64,000 nucleotides of DNA from Eledone cirrhosa. Its lineage: Eukaryota. The translations under genes were made by a program, and so were the position numbers. This document shows positions 373 to 59,849 of the stretch, one piece after another (position 1 is the stretch's first letter; each line of letters starts with the position of its first letter). The notes under the pieces are model-generated. The model was not told the origin of the DNA. It was given only the letters and a program-made list of their open reading frames with translations, and did not search any database. Location of the stretch: the NCBI GenBank assembly GCA_964016885.1, contig OZ024746.1, positions 74,586,001-74,650,000 of the forward strand, written 5' to 3'.

Positions 373-988
373 GAACACATATACGCATATATATATATAT
401 ATATGCGTATATGTGTTCATATGTCTCACTATCTCTCTCACTCACTATCCCTCTCTCTTTATATATATATGTATATACATATATATGTGTGTGTGTGTGT
501 GCGTGTGTGTGTATGTGTGTCTGTCTGTCTGTGTCTCTGTGTGTGCCTGTATATATATATATACATATGCATACATATATAAATGTATGTATAAATATAT
601 ATGTGTGTGAGTGTCCTTTTCTCACCATATCTTCCCATCTCACTTTTCTCTTTTACTCTCAAATTTTCTTCTCCCTTTTTTTCTTCCTAATTTCGAACAT
701 TTCGCCTTATTTCTCACTTGTCCTTCCATACATTCTATTCTCTTTTATAACTTTATGAACATCCACCCTTACACCTCACATCCAGTCTTTCCTACCTCTC
801 CGTCGCTTACATCCTCTCTCTCTCTCTTCCTCTGTCTGTCTCTCTCTCTCTTTCTTACTTTCTCTCTCCTCTCACTATCTCCTCCTGTGACTGTTTCAAT
901 TTATTTTTCTATCTCCACCAAGATAGTAAACAGTCAACCAGCCATGACCAGCCATAACAAATCTAACACACACACACACACACGCACG

Positions 989-1025
<37 letters not shown>

Positions 1026-1927
1026 ATATGCATATAGTGACACACACAAACACATATCCTCACACCACCCACGGACACTATACTGCCACCCTGCCAATCA
1101 ACTATTCCATCAATTGCACTACTTTGCAGTCTAGTGCTGAACTGTGTTATCGCTAAATCGATTGAATGACAATCAATTAGATACACATCAGGTCAACAAC
1201 AACGACCACAGCAACAAAAACTAATAATAACAACTCAAATAACTGCAACAGAAAACTGTTAAAAGATAACAACACAAACAAATCTAATAGAAATCCACAT
1301 ATAATCGACAACAATAACAAATACAACGACGTTGTTATTGTTTGTTTTTATTTTTGACCAAGTCAAGAACAACAAATGTCAAACATATCATACACAACAT
1401 GCACCTACGCACGTATGTACATATACGCAGGTACACGCATGCATCCACACGCACATATTCACACGTACATATGTGTGTTTGGCTGCTAGACCAACGTCTG
1501 TTCCGACAACGTGTGACTCAATTGGTTCTATCAACGGAACAGTCTGTTCATAAAATCAACGGGCAAAAGGCTGAGCTTGCCAAGAACTCATGCACCCCTA
1601 ACGTATTTCTAAGGTAGATTCAGCCTGAAAAACTGTATGACATGACTCATTCATTGAAATAAGTAATGGAGTACCGCCGATAATCGAACTCAGAACCTTG
1701 CAATCGTGAGTTGAACTCCTTCTGAGATCAACTTACCACCTTTCATCCTTCCGGAATCGATAATATAAAGTCATGATTTTCTCATCTTTGCCCTTACCGC
1801 CAAATATTCTGGTTGTGTCCTTCAATTAGAAATCAAGTTTTACCATATTCCATCTTGTTTTAGTTTATATTTTTTCTTCTTTAAATAATTCACTATACAT
1901 ACATATATGATGCCTACTTACAACACC

Positions 1928-1961
<34 letters not shown>

Positions 1962-1963
<2 letters not shown>

Positions 1964-2162
1964 CAAAGAGGGTGTGGTAAGATACCAGGTGGACCATAAC
2001 GCACTGAGTACTCAATACTTAGGATAGTAGAGTGGGTAATAGGAAAAGAGTCAGAACCACGACGGCTCAGCTCAGGCCATTTCGACAGCTAGATCCGAAC
2101 TAGTTCGGACCTAGCTGTCGAAGCTGCCGGAGTTTAGACGTTGTGGTCCTGACTCTTTTCCT
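1962..2162 (-). mobile_element. Hairpin element in (TA)n (family A), half-hammerhead
   Basis: Unique 77-bp left tail, then an imperfect hairpin 2039-2164 centred at about 2101. Minus strand has GAAAU-GGCC..GCC-GUC but no CUGANGA. Homologous to 45852-46036. Confidence 0.65.
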
Positions 2163-2165
2163 ATA

Positions 2166-2266
<101 letters not shown>

Positions 2267-2452
2267 CTACCAAAATGTACGGTAGTGTCCAATCCATATG
2301 AAGAACTCAATGTAATCCGAATATCATGAAAAGAGAAGATGTATTCAAAAGTTTTTTTTCGATGAAAAATACAGGAAAACAGAGTCAAGATAAATTAAAA
2401 AAATAATGAATAAAAACAAAGAAACAGTTCCTTATATTAAAAAATTCATCAG

Positions 2453-2576
2453 TTTACGATCGTTTCTAGGATATATATGTTAGTGTTGGTATGTATATCA
2501 TATAGATCTATGTAAAATTTTTACAAACTATCAGAGGGAATATACATACCTACACATATATATGCTGTCTTCAGAA
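2453..2576 (-). ncRNA. Hammerhead-like motif with long stem II and weak stem I
   Basis: Minus strand reads UU-CUGAAGA-cagc-AUAUAUAUGU-(about 73 nt)-ACAUAUAUAU-ccua-GAAAC-GAUC-GUA-AA. Palindromic loop GAUC. Confidence 0.55.
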
Positions 2577-2648
2577 AAAATCTCTCTCTCTCTATATATA
2601 TATATATATAAATAATTTATATATATATATATATATATATGATCATTA

Positions 2649-2921
2649 CAAATTAAATTTGTATCAAAAATCACATTGCAAAGTTCTAATGATTCAACAA
2701 CTCTATATTTTCCTTTTTGAACTCACAATTGTTGTCTTTCTGTTAGTGTTTTTCTTTGTTTCCTCTGGTTTATATTATTGCTGTTAATATTATCGTATAT
2801 GTGGCTGCACTTGTTGCTGCACTTGTTACTATTGCTTGTGGTTAGTCTCCTGCTGTCGTTAATGTTATTCTTGCTGACGTCACTGCTGTTTTAGTTGTCG
2901 CTATAACTATTGCTGCATCTG
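2649..2921 (+). repeat. Direct repeat, copy 1 (copy 2 at 6526-6894)
   Basis: First about 170 bp identical to 6526-6696. Copy 1 lacks about 100 bp present in copy 2, then the match resumes. Confidence 0.92.
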
Positions 2922-3035
2922 ATGAAGTCATGATCGTGATTGCGTGATAATTGCATTGCGTAATCATGAACGACACAGATTATGAATACCACTGTTCATC
3001 AGCTAGCCTGGACTCGACAATCTCTCTACATCCCT

Positions 3036-3297
3036 TAAGCTTAACAAGGAGATCCCTCTACAAGTGGATCAACCTCTCTTCTCTCGCTTTCAGAAAATTG
3101 GGATAATTATTTCCGATTACCATTGCTTAATTGCCTCTCCGGGAATGCAAGCCACCGGCACACAAGCGTCAGGCAGAAAACACCATCTCTTTTTAAGGCT
3201 TTTAAAATCTTGGGCCGCATTTCATCCTCCCTAGCAGCCTTGCCAAATTTGAACTCTTTAATTGCTTTTGTGACCCCCCTCTTCGAGAAATTAGTCG
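3036..3297 (-). pseudogene. RTE-type LINE ORF relic (pre-RT region)
   Basis: Minus strand reads VTKAIKEFKFGKAAREDEMRPKILKAL...(frameshift)...W*SEIIIPIF*KREKRG*STCRGISLLSL, matching the LINE K.GKA.G.D / IIPIFKKG / YRGISLLS motifs. Confidence 0.8.
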
Positions 3298-3392
3298 TTG
3301 TAATATATATATATATAGTGCGTGTGTGTGTGTATATATGTGTATAAGTGTGTGTATATGTGTATGTGTGTCTATATATTTATGTGTCTGTG

Positions 3393-3426
<34 letters not shown>

Positions 3427-4483
3427 ATTCAAGAATACTAACGAATTCCATTTACTGATTCTCAAATACAAAGCATGTGGCTACCTGATGTTATGGTAGG
3501 AATTGTTTCAACAAGATGATGCATATTAGTATCAAAACCTGGAATCACAAACGTTTTTTAGTTGCTTGATACCTTTTTACATATTGTATAATGTGTTGCT
3601 ATTGTTTTTTCTGTTATCTCTACCGTTACTACTATGTAACTTATGCGGCACATACTGGTTTCGTTTATGCTAATGATATAACAGCATATGATTTTCATCT
3701 TGTTTTGTCGGCTAAGATAAGATTAGATATCTCTCTTAAATTATCGCTATTGTTCTGAATAGGACTGCTGTTAGTATTGTTGTTTTCATAAGCCAGCCAG
3801 ACGACGAAAGGCAGATGTGAATTTTTCTCGCCCTCTACGTTTACAGAGATTGATGGTCAGTTTGAATATATATGTATGGGAAAAAAACTAATTAATGCGA
3901 GCATCCATTACAGAGGAAAAATTATAGAGCTGCATAGTCTGGGAAGTAAACCTCAGTAAAGTTGACGGGAGTAGAAAGCTAACTGCAGCTAGATAGCTTA
4001 GAGGGCCAGATAACACTGAAGTAGTAGTAAGAGAGACAAAGAAAGCAATCTGCCCGTCCCTGATCTAATAGATATTAATAATTCATTAAGGCCCAGGCCA
4101 GCGATGATAAAGCGGATGCATCAGCAAAGACATTCTGGCAATGAATATCCTGTATTATATATAAATAGTGTATCTAAGACTACATTTTTGTTAAAAAAAT
4201 CTTGTATGAATTGAAGGATATGTGATTACCATTTTCTAGTTGGTAAAGTGACCATGTGGACGCACACTCATAGATTTACCTATGTTATTGCTTTAATTGT
4301 TTCCCGTCGCTTTATGTTTCATTTCTTCTATTATAATCGCATTCACATCTATGGGATTATATAGAAATATTAAAGAGAACCCAGTACTAGACTGATACTT
4401 TATTCGTTCCTAGAAGGATGAAATTCAAAATAGATATACCACTATGCATTTTGCTCTATAGTGCTAATGATAAGTTCTTTTAC

Positions 4484-4700
4484 AAGTATCGGTCGCTCTC
4501 CGACAGGTTTACAGTCGTGCCCCTAGCAGTGGAGTCTTCTGGTGTCCTTGGCCCTAGGGGTACTTCCCTACTTACCACCATAGGCGCTGGGATGGCCAGC
4601 CGCAGGTGTGAGCCTCACGAGATGGAATGACTCTTCCAGCGCATTTCCCATACCATCCTCCGGGGAAACGACTTCTCCATTCTGTCCGCCGGGGCCGTGA
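4484..4700 (+). pseudogene. C-terminal fragment of a CRE-like (restriction-like endonuclease) non-LTR retrotransposon ORF
   Basis: GC-rich island translating KYRSLSDRFTVVPLAVESSGVLGPRGTSLLTTIG...E*LFQRISHTILRGNDFSILS. This matches the KY..L...F.P.A.E..G..G / QRIS....RGN...IL C-terminal pattern; one in-frame TGA. Confidence 0.75.
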
Positions 4701-4836: not shown

Positions 4837-6508
4837 GCCGTGTGATATATGGTACATATTGCCGTGTGATCTATGGTACATATTGCCGTGTGATCTATGG
4901 TACATATTGCCGTGTGATATATGGTACATATTGCCGTGTCATATGTGGTACATATTGCCGTGTCATATGTGGTACATATTGCCGTGTGATCTATGGTACA
5001 TATTGCCGTGTGATCTATGGTACATATTGCCGTGTGATCTATGGTACATATTGCCGTGTCATATGTGGTACATATTGCCGTGTGATATATGGTACATATT
5101 GCCGTGTGATATATGGTACATATTGCCGTGTGATCTATGGTACATATTGCCGTGTGATCTATGGTACATATTGCCGTGTCATATATGGTACATATTGCCG
5201 TGTGATATATGGTACATATTGCCGTGTGATCTATGGTACATATTGCCGTGTGATCTATGGTACATATTGCCGTGTGATATATGGTACATATTGCCGTGTG
5301 ATATATGGTACATATTGCCGTGTGATCTATGGTACATATTGCCGTGTGATATATGGTACATATTGCCGTGTGATCTATGGTACATATTGCCGTGTGATCT
5401 ATGGTACATATTGCCGTGTCATATATGGTACATATTGCCGTGTGATATATGGTACATATTGCCGTGTCATATATGGTACATATTGCCGTGTCATATGTGG
5501 TACATATTGCCGTGTGATCTATGGTACATATTGCCGTGTGATCTATGGTACATATTGCCGTGTCATATATGGTACATATTGCCGTGTGATTTATGGTACA
5601 TATTGCCGTGTGATCTATGGTACATATTGCCGTGTGATATATGGTACATATTGCCGTGTGATCTATGGTACATATTGCCGTGTGATCTATGGTACATATT
5701 GCCGTGTCATATATGGTACATATTGCCGTGTGATATATGGTACATATTGCCGTGTCATATATGGTACATATTGCCGTGTCATATGTGGTACATATTGCCG
5801 TGTGATCTATGGTACATATTGCCGTGTGATCTATGGTACATATTGCCGTGTGATCTATGGTACATATTGCCGTGTGATCTATGGTACATATTGCCGTGTC
5901 ATATATGGTACATATTGCCGTGTGATATATGGTACATATTGCCGTGTCATATGTGGTACATATTGCCGTGTGATCTATGGTACATATTGCCGTGTCATAT
6001 ATGGTACATATTGCCGTGTGATATATGGTACATATTGCCGTGTCATATGTGGTACATATTGCCGTGTGATCTATGGTACATATTGCTGTGTGATCTATGG
6101 TACATATTGCCGTGTCATATATGGTACATATTGCCGTGTGATATATGGTACATATTGCCGTGTCATATGTGGTACATATTGCCGTGTGATCTATGGTACA
6201 TATTGCCGTGTGATCTATGGTACATATTGCCGTGTCATATATGGTACATATTGCCGTGTGATCTATGGTACATATTGCCGTGTGATCTATGGTACATATT
6301 GCCGTGTCATATATGGTACATATTGCCGTGTGATATATGGTACATATTGCTGTGTCATATGTGGTACATATTGCCGTGTCATATATGGTACATATTGCCG
6401 TGTGATCTATGGTACATATTGCTGTGTCATATATGGTACATATTGCCGTGTGATATATGGTACATATTGCTGTGTCATATATGGTACATATTGCTGTGTC
6501 ATATGTGG
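4837..6508. repeat. 24-bp minisatellite, about 70 copies
   Basis: Unit GCCGTGT(G/C)AT(C/A)T(A/G)TGGTACATATT in an uninterrupted array. Confidence 0.98.
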
Positions 6509-6525: not shown

Positions 6526-6894
6526 CAAATTAAATTTGTATCAAAAATCACATTGCAAAGTTCTAATGATTCAACAACTCTATATTTTCCTTTTTGAACT
6601 CACAATTGTTGTCTTTCTGTTAGTGTTTTTCTTTGTTTCCTCTGGTTTATATTATTGCTGTTAATATTATCGTATATGTGGCTGCACTTGTTGCTGTAAT
6701 TAATGTTACTGTTGTTGTAGCTAGCTTTTTGTTGTTGTTGGCGTGATTGCTGTCGTTGATAGTTTACTGCTGTGGTTGATGGCTTTGCTCTTGGGGCTAG
6801 TCTATTGCTTGTGGTTAGTCTCCTGCTGTGGTTAATGTTATTCTTGCTGACGTCACTGCTGTTTTAGTTGTCGCTATAACTATTGCCGCATCTG
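6526..6894 (+). repeat. Direct repeat, copy 2
   Basis: See 2649-2921. Confidence 0.92.
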
Positions 6895-13673: not shown

Positions 13674-13707
<34 letters not shown>

Positions 13708-13709
<2 letters not shown>

Positions 13710-13942
13710 ATGTAAATATAATGTATTTTGCAATACACTTTATGCTTAATTAAAAGCATTTTGAAGACCGTAAGCTATTGTTTTAAAGTAGTGACAAATT
13801 CACTCACTTCGATCTCACCAAACAGGAGGAGATAAGCCGACATGACATGTTTCGCTTTTGTTGAAGCTTATCAAGGCCAACTACCCCGCCCGTCTGCTGA
13901 GATCAATGATATTATATTCTTATAGAAAGCTACAATTCTAAT
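13708..13942. mobile_element. Family D insertion: inverted arm plus tail
   Basis: Diverged homologue of the 31.4-kb arm, with a hammerhead, ending ...CAATTCTAAT(TA)n. Confidence 0.7.
13835..13878 (-). ncRNA. Type-I hammerhead ribozyme, U3-A8 variant (same family as 31.5 kb)
   Basis: Minus strand reads GGCC-UUGAUAA-GCUU-CAACAA-AAGC-GAAAC-AUGUCAU-GUC-GGCU. Stems differ from the 31.5-kb copy by compensatory changes; flanks 13721-13834 align with 31404-31517. Confidence 0.85.
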
Positions 13943-13986
13943 ATATATATATATTTATATATTTATATATTTATATATATATATAG

Positions 13987-14061
<75 letters not shown>

Positions 14062-14253
14062 ATACATATTTTTATACTTGGGGAGGGTCATATTGTTGTA
14101 ATAATATTGCCAGAAATAATAATACAACACACTCACTGTCTGGTTGGTTTTCGCTACTGTATCTTTTATATCTCCACAGTTAAACCATTTGGTCCTCAAT
14201 GTTTATCATTGATTGACCAACGGTCAAAAATACACATATAAATACATATATAT

Positions 14254-14307
14254 ATAGTCTAACAAATTTCTTTCGTTGCACATCTGCAACATCATCAGTG
14301 ATACTAT
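14254..14307 (-). ncRNA. Hammerhead-like motif, inverted duplicate of 14370-14423
   Basis: Exact reverse complement of the plus-strand motif, within the 14075-14603 fold-back. Confidence 0.7.
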
Positions 14308-14369
14308 TATGTCCTTCCTGTTGTATTGTATGTCTACGCCATACAATACAATGCAACAGGAGGAACATA

Positions 14370-14423
14370 ATAGTATCACTGATGATGTTGCAGATGTGCA
14401 ACGAAAGAAATTTGTTAGACTAT
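14370..14423 (+). ncRNA. Hammerhead-like motif with degenerate stems I and III
   Basis: AUAGUAUCA-CUGAUGA-u-GUUGCA-GAUG-UGCAAC-GAAAG-AAAUUU-GUU-AGACUAU. Core and stem II are perfect. Confidence 0.7.
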
Positions 14424-14665
14424 ATATATATGTAATTATATGTGTATTTTTGACCGTTGGTCAATCAATGATAAACATTGAGGACCAAATGGTTTAACTG
14501 TGGAGATATAAAAGATACAGTAGCGAAAACCAACCAGACAGTGAGTGTGTTGTATTATTATTTCTGGCAATATTATTACAACAATATGACCCTCCCCAAG
14601 TATAACAATATCGGTTTCAACGCACGTTTTCAAATAAAGAATCTTTATAAACAAATTCAGAAACG

Positions 14666-14704
<39 letters not shown>

Positions 14705-14708
14705 ATTC

Positions 14709-14774
<66 letters not shown>

Positions 14775-15604
14775 ATATATATAAATGATATTGATATATA
14801 TATTCATATTACATATATATATATTCCAATATATATATATATATATATAACATTCATATATATATATTTATATATATATATATATATCTGAAGACTGCGA
14901 AAGCTGCAAATTCTGTGGAGAAAAAGACGCAATGAGGAACAGCTGACTAAATAATCAGATCAAACCAATAAATATAGAGAGATATAGTGACAGACAGATA
15001 TTGAAGGGGTGGGTGGTGGGTAGATATGTAAATAAATCTAGAGAAAGAAAGATCTATATCCTGTTTAACAACGTAGATGTTGTCCTATAGTAACCTCTAT
15101 ACGTCTGCCATCTTATCAAACCAGCCGCAAACCAATTCTGCTCAAATAATTTCTTAGAAATTGATAAAGACGAAGCATATAACCTGTTGCTGGTAATAGG
15201 CCAAAAATACTTGCAAGATAGTTTCAAAATAAAATCGTACACACAGACACACACATGCATACACGCATCAAACACACACGCATACAGGCATACGCACGCA
15301 CTCACATACAGATATACATAGATACATAGAAACCAGACGTAAAAAACATACCACGTAGTCGCATACACATACACGTTTTCCTCATCTTTCAACTCAATTT
15401 TCTCTTTCTCTTTTACTTTGTCCCTCACACTTTCTCTTCATCCCCCCTCTCTCACTCCCCTTTCTCTCTCTCACGTACGATACATTTCTGTGTATCGTAT
15501 GTAGTTATATAAATCTATATGCCTACATATATATATATATATATATATATAGTGAAAGAGTAAAGAATAACATGGTCGGCTGTACAAAAAGGGTTTATTT
15601 ACAT

Positions 15605-16031: not shown

Positions 16032-16377
16032 TTCTCTCTGTCATCGCTAGAAAAAATGGATGTTGATGGTCATCTAAAACACATAGTGTAATGAGGCTGT
16101 TTGCTTACAAACGAATCAAACATTATTGTTATTCAACATAAAACTCATGAATGCATTTACATATAAATGTAAGACTATTATACCCCTACTCTACCTCTAC
16201 GCACTAACCACTCCTACCCCCAACCACACTACTTCCTTCTTCCGACCCTTTGCCTGTCTGGATAAACTTACTAATGTGTCCCACCACATTCCCCAGCTGA
16301 ACAGTTTTCTACTTTGATAAACTCAACCAAAGCACTAACAAGACCAGAGACCTATTTTTTCATACCCTACAGATATT

Positions 16378-16505
16378 ACCATACTCTCGTAAAAGGCTTG
16401 CTGAACACACAAGCCGAAACCGCTTTGCGCCACTGTGGGGATTTTACATATCTCCCCAGGTATCGAGTACTCACATGATTAGTTGTCTCCTCAGTCTCAA
16501 TGCCA
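16378..16505 (+). mobile_element. Repeat family F with a decayed hammerhead half
   Basis: Stem GGCUUG/CAAGCC followed by GAAAC at 16395-16420. Both halves recur at 57988-58087, one half inverted relative to the other. Confidence 0.5.
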
Positions 16506-16506
16506 C

Positions 16507-16561
<55 letters not shown>

Positions 16562-28349: not shown

Positions 28350-29745
<1,396 letters not shown>

Positions 29746-31143: not shown

Positions 31144-31517
31144 AAGATTTGAGATGGATAGATACGAGATAGTTAAGTGATATATAGTAGAAAATACAAG
31201 AGTGAGTGGGAGAGAGAAAGAGAGAGATGGAGCAGGAGAGAAATGAGCTAGATAAGATAGATATATAACAAAACCTGGTGAGAAGCTAAAGAAAGTGAGA
31301 GTGATTATATGTAACAAAATATACCTGATAATTACGATATATATATATATATAATTAGAATTGGTGCTCTGAAATAGCGATATATATATGAATATATATA
31401 CAGTGTATTTTGCAATACACTGTATGATTAATTAAAAGCATTTAGAAGACCTTACGCTATCGTTTTAGAGTAGTGACAGTCTCACTTACTTTAATTTTCA
31501 GCAAACAGGGGAGATAA

Positions 31518-31563
31518 AGCTGACAGAGCTCTGTTTCGCACTTTTTTGGTGCTTATCAAAGCT
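31518..31563 (-). ncRNA. Type-I hammerhead ribozyme, U3-A8 core variant
   Basis: Minus strand reads AGCU-UUGAUAA-GCAC-CAAAAAA-GUGC-GAAAC-AGAGCUCU-GUC-AGCU. Palindromic loop AGAGCUCU, GUC triplet. C3-G8 is replaced by the compensatory U3-A8. Confidence 0.85.
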
Positions 31564-31594
31564 AACTACTCCTCCTGAGACTGTCACTGTAGTT

Positions 31595-31639
31595 AGCTTT
31601 GGTAAGCACCAAAAAGTGCGAAACAGACCTCTGTCAGCT
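31595..31639 (+). ncRNA. Hammerhead copy on the opposite arm, A6G core mutation
   Basis: AGCU-UUGGUAA-GCAC-CAAAAA-GUGC-GAAAC-AGACCUCU-GUC-AGCU. Inverted duplicate of 31518-31563 with one core and one loop substitution. Confidence 0.75.
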
Positions 31640-31778
31640 TTATCTCCCCTGTTTGCTGAAAATTAAAGTAAGTGAGACTGTCACTACTCTAAAACGATAG
31701 CGTAAGGTCTTCTAAATGCTTTTAATTAAGCATACAGTGTATTGCAAAATACACTATATATACATTCATATATATATG

Positions 31779-35997: not shown

Positions 35998-36163
35998 AAA
36001 TTTGAAGACTAAAATCCAAAGAGGGCTCGATAAGGATAAATATATATCAAATATATAAGAACCGTAGAGCAAATATATATATATATATATATATTTATTA
36101 AAATAACAGATTAAAGTTTAAGCAAAGAATCGCTGCTTTCACCCTTAACGGGATCTTCCGAAA

Positions 36164-36168
<5 letters not shown>
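35998..36168 (-). mobile_element. (TA)n-associated repeat family C
   Basis: GAAGACTAAAATCCAAAGAGGGCTCGATAAGG...TAGAGCAAAT recurs at 39872-39985 and 17212-17263, and partially at 44281-44343. The minus strand has a decayed core CGGAAGA-u-CCC-GUUAA-GGG-u-GAAAG. Confidence 0.6.
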
Positions 36169-39852: not shown

Positions 39853-39982
39853 TAATTATGATAATAAATGTGAAGACTAAAATCCAAAGAGGGCTCGATA
39901 AGGATAAATATATATCAAATATATAAGAACCCTAGAGCAAATATTTATTAAAATAACAGATTAAAGTTTAATGTTATTTTAA

Positions 39983-40024
<42 letters not shown>

Positions 40025-40091
40025 CAAGGTTTAGCAAATAAGAAAAAGTTTTAAAATAAATTTTAAAAAGGTCACTGTACCTGCTGTAATT

Positions 40092-40176
40092 ACCCTTACC
40101 GTACGGTTTCAAGTCTCGAAATAAATGGATAATCCATACGGAAATCCATTGAGAAGGAAGACTTTCGTCAGAGGGT
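40092..40176 (-). ncRNA. Type-I hammerhead ribozyme, intact core, palindromic stem-III loop
   Basis: Minus strand reads ACCCU-CUGACGA-AAGUCU-(42-nt insert)-AGACUU-GAAAC-CGUACG-GUA-AGGGU. All three stems pair; the loop CGUACG is self-complementary. Confidence 0.9.
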
Positions 40177-40402
40177 TCTTTTCGCTCGGAGAATATAAAA
40201 TTCCCGAGATAACATTTTGGTCGATTTAACTGATGCTATTTCTAGTGGCAATAGATTGACCTTTCCGCCTTTGCCTTCTACATTTACACACGGCACTAGA
40301 CAGAATTGCTTCTTCATCATACACTCTCATCTCGGGAACAATTTTGAATGGCGCCAGTTCGTGATTTGAACTCGGGAATTTTATATTCTCCGAGCGAAAA
40401 GA

Positions 40403-40487
40403 ACCCTCTGACAAAAGTCTTCCTTTTCAATGGATTTCCGTATGGATTATCCATTTATTTCGAGACTTGAAACCGTACGGTAAGGGT
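40403..40487 (+). ncRNA. Hammerhead ribozyme copy on the opposite arm, G8A core mutation
   Basis: ACCCU-CUGACAA-AAGUCU...AGACUU-GAAAC-CGUACG-GUA-AGGGU. Near-identical to the 40092-40176 copy, but the core reads CUGACAA (C3-A8 mismatch). Confidence 0.8.
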
Positions 40488-40665
40488 AATTACAGCAGGT
40501 ACAGTGAACATTTTAAAATTTATTTTAAAACTTTTTCTTATTTGCTAAACCTTGATTATATATGTTCTGGCTCGTTAATTTATTAACCTGCCATAGAACC
40601 ACATTGGCATACGGTTGGATAATACATGTGTCCCTATATGTATTTTGCATATAGGGATACATACC

Positions 40666-40716
<51 letters not shown>

Positions 40717-41125
40717 AATATATAAACATATATAAATGGTTGTTTATTATACATACATATTTCGTATATGCTTCAACATACAACCCTTGTTGCGTTTCAT
40801 GCTATGTCAGCGCAGTACTACTGCACATTGATTCGAGCCAGCCTCTGTATGTAAATGAGCATCATCAGACGATATTCATAAGCAAATACCTATAACCATA
40901 TTTTGTCTTAGCAGTGAAGTAGTAAACCTTTCTGATGACAGATACATATCCATGAACGGTTGCTAAGAAAAACAATGCCATGTTCACCTTTATTAAAAAA
41001 TCATAGCGGGTCTAAATGCATTTGTATTACGCAAACATTTATTATATGTATCAATATACAACCCTTCTTACGTTTCCCGCTAAGTTACAGTATTAATACT
41101 ATATATATATACATATAGTAATAAT

Positions 41126-41313
41126 AATTGTTTCTACTTTTGGCACAAGGCCAGCAATTACCCAATGCATTACTGGTACTTTATTTTTTCGACCCCGTAA
41201 GGATGAAAGGCAAAGTTGACCTCGGCGGGATTTGAACTCAGTTCGTAAAGGGACGTAACTATGCTGCAAAGCATGGCGTCTGACCCTCTACCGATACTGC
41301 CAATTCACCACCC
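41126..41313 (-). mobile_element. tRNA-derived SINE
   Basis: Same family, full length. Confidence 0.88.
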
Positions 41314-41360
41314 TATAGTATTCACCACATATAGTAATAATAATAATGTTATTTTAATAC

Positions 41361-41672
<312 letters not shown>

Positions 41673-41717
41673 TAGTAATAATAATGTTATTTTAATACAT
41701 AAATATATTTTAATACT

Positions 41718-41792
<75 letters not shown>

Positions 41793-45750: not shown

Positions 45751-45790
<40 letters not shown>

Positions 45791-45799
45791 TCGTCGATT

Positions 45800-45851
<52 letters not shown>

Positions 45852-45853
<2 letters not shown>

Positions 45854-46036
45854 CGAAGGAAATGTGGTAAGGAACCAGATGGACTATAACGCACCAAAGT
45901 ACTCAATAGTAGTAGAGTGGGTAATAGGAACGAGTAGGACCCCGACGGCTGAGCTCAAGCCGACGGCTAATTCTGGACTCCAGAATTAGCCGTCGAAACG
46001 GCTTGAGCTCAGCCGTCGGGATCCTACTCGTTCCTA
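45852..46036 (-). mobile_element. Hairpin element in (TA)n (family A), half-hammerhead
   Basis: Same tail as at 1962. Hairpin 45924-46037 centred at about 45978 contains GAAAC-GGCU-UGAGCUC-AGCC-GUC. Confidence 0.65.
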
Positions 46037-46066
46037 TATACATATATATATATATATATACATATA

Positions 46067-46376
46067 GTTATACTTTGGGAGGGTCATGTTGCCAATAAGA
46101 GACACACGCACCAGTTGCTTTCACTCCAATTTATTATAAATTAAATTATAAATTAAAAAATTTATAAATTTCCGGTCGGTTGGTTGGTTCCACTACCGGG
46201 CGGTTGTTCATATATTGTCAAAATTCTTTCGTCACACAATCTGTGACCTCTTCAGTGACTGAGGATTCTTTTCTTTGTTTTGTTTGTGCCTCTCCTTTGT
46301 TCTGTCCTACGCCATCTTATCGGTTTCAACACACGTTTTCAGATAAAGAATCTTGCTAAACAAATTCAGAAACGAT
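46067..46376. mobile_element. Family B insertion: inverted pLTR arm plus sense tail
   Basis: Starts GTTATACTTTGGGAGGGTCAT as in the 14-kb left arm, has a minus-strand hammerhead, and ends with the tail TATCGGTTTCAAC...CAGAAACG. Flanked by (TA)n. A 31-bp remnant lies at 28613-28646. Confidence 0.7.
46217..46259 (-). ncRNA. Hammerhead ribozyme motif (same family as 14.3 kb)
   Basis: Minus strand reads GUCA-CUGAAGA-g-GUCACA-GAUUG-UGUGAC-GAAAG-AAUUU-UGAC. Stems I and II are perfect; stem III is shortened. Confidence 0.7.
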
Positions 46377-46394
46377 ATATATACATACATATAC

Positions 46395-46517
<123 letters not shown>

Positions 46518-57643: not shown

Positions 57644-58107
57644 GTATATATATATATAATATATAAGATGTGTACGCATATATTCATATATGTGTACGAC
57701 TATGTATAGGTGTTAGTCTGAATATATTTTCATGGTGATTAGTTAAATATATACACATACATACTCATGCATACATATATATGTATATGTGTGTGTGTGT
57801 GTGTGCGTGTGTGCGTGTGTGTTTGGGCGTGTGTGTGCTTGTGTGTGCTTGTGTGTGGAAATTGCGAGAAAGAAAATAAACGACAGACATATCCTAGATC
57901 GTGAAAGAAGATTTTAGTGAAATCTTCAGTTTAAGTACCTGCACGCCCACCCCATATATATATATATGTAGAGAGAGAGAGAGGGAGGTACTGAGCCCGA
58001 AGAGACCACTAATCATGTGATTACTCAATATATGGGGAGGTTAACACACAAGCAGAAACCGATTGGCGCCGCGGTTGGGATTTTATCTATCTATCTATCT
58101 ATATATT

Positions 58108-58144
<37 letters not shown>

Positions 58145-58519
58145 ATAGTTAGAGAGAAAGAATGAGAGAAGAAAGAATGAGTGAGAGGGAGATATATGCC
58201 ATTTGCTCTCTAATGCTACCGCACTTCTACGAGCGGGACACCGTTAGTACTCCTCAGGCGATCTGGAGTGAATGTCTGAATATACATTAGTGTATTATGG
58301 ACAGTCAGTAAAAGCGTTCTTACCCCCAAACCAACTCACACACAACACCATATACATACATAGTAACCGTCACATCAACAATGCAGGCAAGAACCTGAGG
58401 TCTGTCATAGCTGTGAAGATGTATGTAACCACTTTAAGGATTCCTATATTAAACGCATTGTTCAAACAATAAATGTGCGTATCAAAGAGCACACCCATAC
58501 AAGGTATTTCTCTGTTAAT

Positions 58520-58707
58520 AATTGTTTCTACTTTTGGCACAAGGCCAGCAAATACCCAGTGCATTACTGGTACTTTATTTTATCGACCCCGTAAGGATGA
58601 AAGGCACAGTTGACCTCGGCTGGATTTGATCTCAGAATGGCAAGGGCCGTAACTCTATGCGTCAAAGCATGGCGTCTGACCACCTACTGATAATGCCAAT
58701 CCACCGC
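58520..58707 (-). mobile_element. tRNA-derived SINE
   Basis: Same family; interrupts the left arm of the fold-back element. Confidence 0.88.
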
Positions 58708-59205: not shown

Positions 59206-59392
59206 AGGCGGTGGATTGGCAGTATCGGTAGAGGGTCGGATGCCATGCTTTGAAGCATAGAGTTACCTCCCTGTATGATCTAAGTTCAAATCCCGCCGAG
59301 GTTAACTTTGCCTTTCATCCTTCCGGGGTCGATAAAATAAAGTACCAGTAATGCACTGGGTATTTGCTGGCCTTGTGCCAAAAGTAGAAACA
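59206..59392 (+). mobile_element. tRNA-derived SINE, full length, 17-bp TSD
   Basis: Same family. TSD GTTATTTGATACGCACA at 59189-59205 and 59393-59409. Confidence 0.92.
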
Positions 59393-59849
59393 GTTATTTG
59401 ATACGCACATTTATTGTTTGAACAATGCGTTTAATATAGGAATCCTTAAAGTAGTTACATGCATCTTCACAGCTATGACAGACCTCAGGTTCTTGCCTGC
59501 ATTGTTGATGTGACGGTTACTATGCATGTATATGTTGTTGTGTGTGAGTTGGTTTGGGGGTAAGAACGCTTTTACTGAGTGTCCAGAATGCACTAATGTA
59601 TATTCAGACATAGAAGTGACTGGAAGAAGGAAATAAAGAAAGGTGATGTACAAGACAAGTTTACACACATCTTCAACCTCAACAGCTCTCAAACTAGCAA
59701 AATGTTTTCTCACCATTTAATTGAGTACACCATTTTAAAATACTGGCTCGTGCAACAGAAAATAAAACTTTCTGTTGGTATGATGTGTGTGTGTGTGTGT
59801 GATAAAACAAACAGCATAGATAGGACGAAGAAAACAAAGAAAAGAAAAT

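Follow-up and report, generated by a model that had tools for sequence, protein, structure and literature searches.

How does a mobile element come to lie in a genome as two mirror-image arms, only one of which carries a tail? The question is raised by an element at about 14 kb in the window, that is, the whole stretch of 64,000 nucleotides from Eledone cirrhosa analysed here, which belongs to a 3.0-Gb animal genome rich in (TA)n. An earlier note, made from the letters of the window, had described two mirror arms with a tail of 64 bp on one side, had seen the same layout in several other families, and had proposed that a single integration mechanism is shared by them all.

Architecture of the 14-kb element and its relatives

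The 14-kb element consists of two head-to-head copies of a Neptune-type Penelope-like end repeat, set in (TA)n. The inverted arm (14,066-14,342, minus strand) is 92% identical to the natural copy L020 and has its outer end at +26, where (TA)n follows. The second, sense arm (14,340-14,611, plus strand) overlaps it by 3 nt at the centre, and the two arms differ by 5 substitutions in 266 aligned nt. Beyond the sense arm lies the one-sided tail (14,612-14,671, plus strand), which runs from +27 to about +86 and comes from a sister family, R46. The first 28 codons of a Penelope-like open reading frame (ORF; 14,586-14,671, plus strand) span the arm into the tail and are 70% identical to the N-terminus of the 1,210-aa ORF of copy L168; these first codons are all that the 64-kb window holds of the elements' ORF, with no long coding frame for them inside it. 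The (TA)n target occupies 13,941-14,065 on the left and begins at 14,672 on the right, and the symmetry ends at the element boundary, with (TA)n on either side. The two mirror arms are thus as first described, and the tail is indeed one-sided, although its length is about 56-60 nt rather than 64 bp. The two-armed architecture is confirmed as real, and is mostly a known structure.

A descriptor scan places a type I hammerhead motif with a minimal helix III at 14,379-14,420 (plus strand), the predicted cut after about 14,412 being assigned by hand, and a mirror motif with its core at 14,298 (minus strand). An Rfam scan gave no match for the hammerheads at 14,379, 14,298 and 46,255; it returned one HH9 match at 13,816-13,893 (E=6e-4, under the gathering score), in a family D-like copy, and otherwise microsatellite-driven miRNA noise. 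Because this sub-threshold match was the only one from Rfam, the hammerheads rest on the descriptor and hand assignment; unconstrained folds of the hammerhead regions do not take the active fold. Families C and F carry hammerhead-like motifs read by eye. Variants of the hammerhead core, also read by eye (31,490-31,575, 16,392-16,460 and 36,100-36,165; L158), comprise U3-A8, which families D and F share with the long form of A, an A at position 4 in C, and long stem II inserts in E and A.

Copies of the family of the 14-kb arms, termed N1, run upstream into a coding region for reverse transcriptase (RT) and a GIY-YIG endonuclease, which bears out the Penelope identity that the earlier note had given to these insertions. 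A protein search of the genome yielded 36,598 candidates; 131 were scored, and 100 of the 131 were taken as the sample. These 100 protein-picked loci belong to a younger sister subfamily of the 14-kb arms. Among the copies, L168 holds the intact 1,210-aa ORF in a 4,133-bp partial-tandem unit. The ORF begins inside the end repeat, with the tail as its next codons, and comprises an RT, a CX4CxxC linker just upstream of the GIY-YIG core and the C-terminal GIY-YIG itself, in addition to a CCHH motif with two Cys between GIY and YIG (by eye from the translation). It aligns to P0061, which has RVT_1 and GIY-YIG, with E=4e-22. In Pfam, GIY-YIG lies above the cut-off in the L017 fragment, the RT fragment of the L168 ORF falls below it, and the whole L168 ORF by itself has no Pfam or PDB match. 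The nearest named relative of the parent protein is a hypothetical protein of Octopus vulgaris (68% identity). In L168, L141, L118 and L158 the partial tandem, or pLTR, includes the ORF start, which an upstream truncated copy abuts. L168 also has an in-frame Asn-rich insert in its N-terminal part (residues about 250-410).

By the motifs given in PMC8557442, among them a C-terminal endonuclease with a CX2-5CxxC linker for Neptune, the N1 parent is classed as Neptune-type. The Naiad clade, with its N-terminal endonuclease and lack of a canonical hammerhead, was rejected, given the C-terminal position of the endonuclease here and the hammerhead motif. The autonomous family R46 is a sister of N1, with a protein 43-69% identical depending on the region. 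A MITE or DNA transposon, of fixed length and with symmetric TIRs, was ruled out by the variable centres and lengths and the one-ended tail. Elsewhere, eight near-identical N1 matches lie about 60-95 kb apart at G000:C12:17008612-17468571, suggesting a large segmental tandem repeat. Another Penelope-like family is represented by an 804-aa open frame with a DKT motif (Hydra-like) and no Pfam match at L162:1-2412 (plus strand).

The R46 relative at 46.07 kb has, as the earlier note said, an inverted arm joined directly to the same tail. Its tail-less arm (46,062-46,318, minus strand), with the inner end at a likely RNA-start motif and a hammerhead core at 46,255, adjoins a tail-only arm (46,318-46,376, plus strand, about +25 to +83) that is 93% identical to the 14-kb tail; L201, L202 and L208 have the same layout. 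In addition, a 36-nt tail-less R46 end fragment sits at 28,613-28,648 within a 1.4-kb (TA)n-type array.

The short non-coding units of families D and E, arranged in head-to-tail tandem copies, each with a predicted hammerhead and none with a match to Penelope-like element (PLE) proteins, mark both families as retrozyme-like. The D unit measures 319 bp and carries a U3-A8 hammerhead variant assigned by hand. One D pair (31,353-31,777, minus strand) comprises a tailed arm at 31,353-31,577 and a tail-less arm at 31,589-31,777, and a D-like copy of about 80% identity (13,698-13,942, minus strand) has a long tail-less arm (13,698-13,927) followed by a 15-nt remnant of the tail end. The E unit is about 480 bp long (477-483 bp), with its hammerhead found by descriptor scan. 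In the E pair (40,016-40,680, plus strand), the tail-less arm (40,016-40,208, minus strand) meets a longer arm (40,205-40,563) with a tail of about 105 nt, and what had been taken as a 162-bp spacer is a portion of this longer sense arm.

Family A appears as a pair of short arms with an 80-nt tail at the left (45,847-46,040, minus strand) and as a diverged pair (1,957-2,166, minus strand). It has a 280-bp tandem form, and its L158 arm runs into the C-terminus of an endonuclease; this 134-aa fragment, which does not take in the place where CCHH cysteines would lie and has no Pfam match, shows CxxC and CxH around the conserved E and N beside a (TA)n target, features by which the parent appears Hydra-like. 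A full-length-query bias had suggested that A is a palindromic element of fixed length, which a tail-only query ruled out. Family C has a tailed arm at 39,858-39,971 plus a tail-less arm of about 20 nt (39,858-39,992, minus strand). Family F has an inverted tail-only arm (57,985-58,042, read by eye) joined to a tail-less arm at 58,043-58,101 (57,985-58,101, plus strand). Hence the paired layout attributed to D, E, A, C and F holds for D, E, A, C at 39.9 kb and F at 58 kb; it does not extend to F at 16.4 kb, a single tailed arm without an inverted partner (16,202-16,514, plus strand), and the decayed C copy at 44.3 kb gave no match in the arm scan. Different families are nested side by side in one TA tract at 13,698-14,887, 39,858-40,680 and 45,755-46,479; each insertion in a shared tract renews the target for the next one.

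Outer ends of the paired arms

An adjacent inverted arm was found in 49 of the 100 protein-picked loci. Four of these pairs were dropped, as the inverted piece ended inside the ORF. In all 45 scorable pairs, the outer end of one arm lies at about +26 and that of its partner at +69/+71 or +84 (p=3e-14 vs 0.5), the class of a few ends with indels being taken by reading the alignments directly. The 51 loci without an inverted arm by the first filter comprise 37 tail-less ends, 9 tailed ends, one end running on into the ORF and four loci without a 3' end; three of the 37 tail-less singles hid a 20-nt inverted tail piece, and two of the three look like duplicates. Across six families, 127 of 128 pairs were one-tailed (N1 58, R46 7, D 7 of 8, E 2, A 49, C 4), in a set that overlaps the 45 and whose queries biased the class of one arm, not that of its partner. 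A relaxed count of N1 and R46 gave 73 one-tail pairs, two two-tail pairs and one no-tail pair. The two-tailed exceptions are L032 and L231, in addition to L010 by eye, and two of the three odd pairs in the relaxed count are 2.6 and 5 kb across and may each combine insertions that were made separately. In family F, about 8 of 20 loci are two-armed with one tail each (by eye). Tail length is 43-60 nt in N1/R46 and reaches about 105 nt in E.

The outer end of the inverted arm is fixed at the tail boundary, a point that the earlier note had asked to be checked. The variable 5' truncation that it described is also borne out. The arrangement is not due to chance: loci with no relation to one another share the exact base at which the inverted arm ends, and the first look at the genome gave 952-4,501 candidates per family (six families, full-length queries).

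Two readings would make the pairing secondary. A long-read fold-back or assembly artefact might be expected in (TA)n-rich sequence, which is hard to assemble. Against this, the 14-kb arms differ at 5/266 sites, a kind of difference that the earlier note rightly held against an artefact; moreover, the ends fall at fixed element sites across many contigs, the tail is asymmetric, and SINEs in the same loci are rarely paired head-to-head. An artefact is thus a very unlikely source of these structures. Later local rearrangement of single-arm insertions, by replication template switching in TA repeats, has a counterpart in the window, where a SINE palindrome (41,468-41,668) resembles a rearranged duplicate of its neighbour, so that such rearrangements do occur here. 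Such events are nevertheless a very improbable origin of the PLE pairs: only 3 head-to-head pairs were found among 164 SINE ends, compared to 45/100 for N1, the mirror symmetry breaks off at a site inside the element, leaving out the flank in every case, and short tail-bearing arms hold sequence that is absent from the long arm.

The SINE region itself (41,113-41,740) comprises a tRNA-like SINE and then the near-duplicate folded into the palindrome, with duplicated flank, and looks like a local rearrangement. Two full-length head-to-head SINE pairs are also present, in L086 and L107. Other repeats in the window include a 436-bp inverted duplication (58,272-58,707 and 59,208-59,611; 86% identity), 500 bp apart and including a SINE and flank, a 24-bp unit repeated about 70 times (4,837-6,508), and a segment at 2,649-2,921 that recurs at 6,526-6,894.

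Centres, junctions and a proposed twin-priming model

The distribution of the tail between long and short arms bears on a third reading. Self-priming fold-back, proposed in PMC3846280, would yield one hairpin cDNA, possibly on an antisense template, and staggered cuts by the endonuclease would leave the tail on one side, as in the endonuclease-mediated tail resolution put forward in PMC8557442. This explains near-identical arms, one tail per pair and short central overlaps. However, with a fixed stagger the tail should consistently fall on one kind of arm, be it the longer one that bears the loop or its partner, and the tail was found on the longer arm in 19 pairs and on the shorter in 26 (n=45). 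A single tail-primed fold-back, which predicts 45 to 0, cannot produce this distribution, and fold-back from the tail-less cDNA also fails because that cDNA cannot supply the tail. Moreover, tail-only arms of 20-60 nt beside kilobase tail-less arms cannot be copies of them, and the tail ends match the RT start sites described in vitro in PMC11167929. We therefore consider fold-back unlikely. In the earlier wording, an inverted tail-less arm faces a sense arm with a tail; the pairing of one tailed with one tail-less arm stands, but the tailed arm can be the longer or the shorter one.

While the outer ends are fixed, the centres vary, favouring the likely RNA start and mostly ignoring the ribozyme cut site. 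The position of the centres relative to ribozyme cleavage was a check named in the earlier note; when run, it showed that none of 31 incidental R46 arms ends at a distance of 5 nt or less from the predicted cut. Inner ends of old N1 copies outside the first sample were left out of the centre count, because young copies with early-broken alignments were mixed in. Short N1 arms ended at the predicted cut in 2 of 19 tail-less and 0 of 26 tailed cases; tail-less N1 arms of this kind possibly form a minor class, represented by L070 and L109, in which the partner arm runs through the cut. The centre of the 14-kb element itself lies about 70 nt upstream of its predicted cut. By contrast, of the 20 R46 arms extending as far as -214, 12 come to an end no more than 50 nt further on, in the region of a motif at -229 (nominal p=1.5e-7, for a window picked after seeing the data), and both long arms in our 64-kb window, at 14 kb and 46 kb, end at this motif. 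The -229 motif, which we take to resemble a YY1 site, probably lies near the transcript start. Further upstream, several unrelated insertions among L070-L169 share 5' truncation points within 1-2 nt (for example -2121, -1655, -1767/-1766, -2146 to -2148 and -1951/-1952), suggesting stall hot spots of the RT.

Arms of at most 85 nt make up 7/28 of the tailed arms and 0/19 of the tail-less ones (p=0.03), which gives modest support to stalling of the outer cDNA where the inner one begins. Many other tailed arms extend kilobases past +26, and in L131 both arms are kilobases long (about 3.5 and 3.9 kb); if both cDNAs are copied from one RNA, such long tailed arms call for strand displacement. Among 45 junctions, 34 were resolved and 11 unresolved. 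Inserts of 1-28 nt, some visibly repeated from nearby sequence, are carried by 14 of the 34, and the remaining 20 have overlaps of 0-4 nt (mean 1.45 vs 0.62 by chance), at least 2 nt long in 10 of the 20 compared to 14% by chance. At 8 of the 11 modal start sites, the last 3 nt or more are alternating AT, compared to a background of 3-13%, which suggests short pairing between primer and template. Target-site duplications were not demonstrable in (TA)n (1/49 vs 0.36 per shuffle). The (ATT)3 at the outer start site is expanded to as many as about 16 units in some copies (L251 and L252, family E tailed ends; 40,670-40,680 in the window), either by RT stuttering at initiation, as in telomerase, or by later slippage.

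We consider it probable that the two-armed insertions arise by twin priming from two internal RT start sites, mostly on one RNA, followed by end-joining of the cDNAs. The element endonuclease would cut both strands of the (TA)n target, and the two free DNA ends would serve as primers for reverse transcription, each from a different fixed site on the RNA, one at the inner site and the other at the outer, the tail corresponding to the RNA between them. At each start, 2-10 nt of the (TA)n end would probably pair with an AT run in the RNA and so help priming. Stalling of the outer cDNA near the inner start would be frequent and give tail-only arms; the cDNAs would otherwise stop at random or run off the likely 5' end of the transcript, and their two 3' ends would be joined by microhomology-type repair. 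As 51 of the 100 loci had no inverted arm by the first filter, the second primer would often leave no trace. The small hammerhead tandem units of D and E would be mobilised in trans in the same way. The model takes the ends, the pairing rule, the arm kinship and the junction features as observed, all on finished insertions, and from these we infer that the enzymes cut both strands, that each strand has a start site assigned to it, that the primers pair with the RNA, that cDNAs stall and are end-joined, and that D and E are mobilised in trans.

Twin priming might instead draw on two separate RNAs, with the subunits of a dimer committed to different start sites. Two templates would allow both arms to reach kilobases without displacement, as in L131, and would suit L070 and L109, in which one arm stops at the predicted ribozyme cut and the other passes it; in addition, the 14-kb chimera described below suggests that two RNAs can feed one insertion. 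The arms of a pair, however, usually match each other better than other copies: of 26 pairs with at least 150 nt of overlap, 14 had the partner as the best match among 93-94 copies and 24 had it as one of the six best, and the 14-kb arms differ by 1.9% from each other and by 4.5% from the nearest of 38 sampled arms. Such kinship would follow from a common source and from later conversion alike, and two RNAs may come from one source locus. Furthermore, there is an excess of tailed arms that stop near the inner start (p=0.03), and chimeric tails are rare (1/94). Twin priming on two separate RNAs is, in our judgement, distinctly improbable.

The 14-kb copy combines N1-type arms with an R46-type tail, as does no other of the 94 tailed N1 ends (1/94); the tail belongs to R46 and not to the arms' own family. 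Its exact N1/R46 junction occurs once in the genome. The 19 one-mismatch matches have N1-type letters at that place, and the 9 examined have N1 tails; the 8 closest matches of the tail elsewhere all have R46 repeats upstream. Genome searches with the junction and the tail did not find a recombinant N1/R46 subfamily, and the 46-kb neighbour was ruled out as tail donor, as 0 of 4 private changes are shared. The switch from N1 to R46 lies between the start codon and +28, in a stretch common to both families and at the site of the inner start. A template switch during insertion is the likeliest origin: under the twin-priming model, synthesis of the outer cDNA would have begun on an RNA of the sister family and changed template within the 26 nt of ORF start that both families share. 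The chimera may instead stem from conversion or from a tail-only insertion of R46 at a later time.

A wider proposal holds that at least two PLE clades and their retrozymes integrate by obligate, programmed twin priming, in which the complex assigns a different fixed start to each strand via (TA)n pairing and +26 is the hand-over point, at which RNAs from different families can be linked, as in the 14-kb chimera; under this proposal, tail and inverted repeat would be two sides of a single process. We give it roughly even credence. The earlier idea of one integration mechanism for all families is upheld as regards the shared footprint, but D and E are small non-coding units and the parent of A appears Hydra-like, so that several enzymes are probably involved rather than one. 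Likewise, the copies do record intermediates, as had been thought, but are themselves finished insertions.

Comparison with known systems

The elements are new members of known groups, and their architecture is already published: an inverted 5' copy with a one-sided tail is described in passages of PMC3846280, PMC8557442, PMC8969392 and PMC2377424, and hammerheads in pLTRs in PMC4209133. The statement in the earlier note that Penelope insertions often have an inverted 5' pLTR lacking the short 3' tail agrees with PMC8557442 and PMC3846280. The origin of the inverted repeats and the one-sided tail is called unresolved in sections of PMC8557442 and PMC11167929, and twin priming for Penelope was not found in the literature searched, though it may have been stated before in older reviews or supplements.

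With the EN+ Neptune-type elements described in PMC8557442 and PMC3846280, the present ones share partial tandem pLTRs, 5' truncation, an adjacent inverted truncated copy, a one-end tail that forms the ORF start, a pLTR hammerhead, a C-terminal GIY-YIG with CX2-5CxxC and an Asn-rich insert. The N-rich inserts of the Adineta Penelope elements, as given in PMC3846280, lie at other positions than that of L168. The tails of N1/R46, at 43-60 nt, and of E, at as much as about 105 nt, exceed the 30-40 nt stated in these sources. What differs is the near-strict rule of one tail per pair, with the tail on either arm, which is counted here, and the mixture of two families in the 14-kb copy. The Hydra-clade PLEs, which in the relevant part of PMC8557442 include Hydra-1_Obim, are marked by an endonuclease that lacks CCHH and has CxxC and CxH around the conserved E and N, and by DKT, RWK and CxCX5C motifs. 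Family A may find its likeness among them through CxxC and CxH around E and N in the L158 arm and the (TA)n target, on a fragment of 134 aa.

The Poseidon protein of the green anole studied in vitro (PMC11167929) cuts and extends both strands, uses two internal start sites that bound the tail, and is predicted to form a dimer. An AT-rich target is common to both systems, and ribozyme cleavage is not needed in the anole one. By contrast, the portions of PMC11167929 consulted describe start sites that do not differ between the strands and lack homology with the DNA that is cut, and do not explain the inverted arm; here, 8/11 starts end in at least 3 nt matching (TA)n. The pairing rule can be put to a direct test in the existing in vitro PLE system, where it predicts different starts for the two strands of a single target.

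A link between retrozymes and Penelope has been drawn in PMC7229834 and bioRxiv 10.64898/2026.07.22.740005, and the D (319 bp) and E (about 480 bp) units share with the non-LTR retrozymes of these sources the head-to-tail arrangement and the type I hammerhead. Unlike them, D and E carry the Penelope footprint, comprising fixed two-site ends, an inverted arm and a TA target, which is not reported in the passages on retrozymes. The same footprint on hammerhead tandems lends structural support to the suspicion that Penelope enzymes mobilise retrozymes. In genome annotation, such hairpins, which number in the thousands, should not be classed as MITEs.

The proposed mechanism is likened to the twin priming of L1. 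In L1, one primer begins at the poly(A) tail and the next at an internal site whose position varies, so that the arms barely overlap; here, in contrast, both starts occupy fixed positions separated by 40-100 nt, which yields a one-tailed palindrome. Shared with L1, as described in parts of bioRxiv 10.1101/2024.12.14.628481 and PMC2837659, are the priming of cDNA by both target strands and the head-to-head joining of the products with microhomology.
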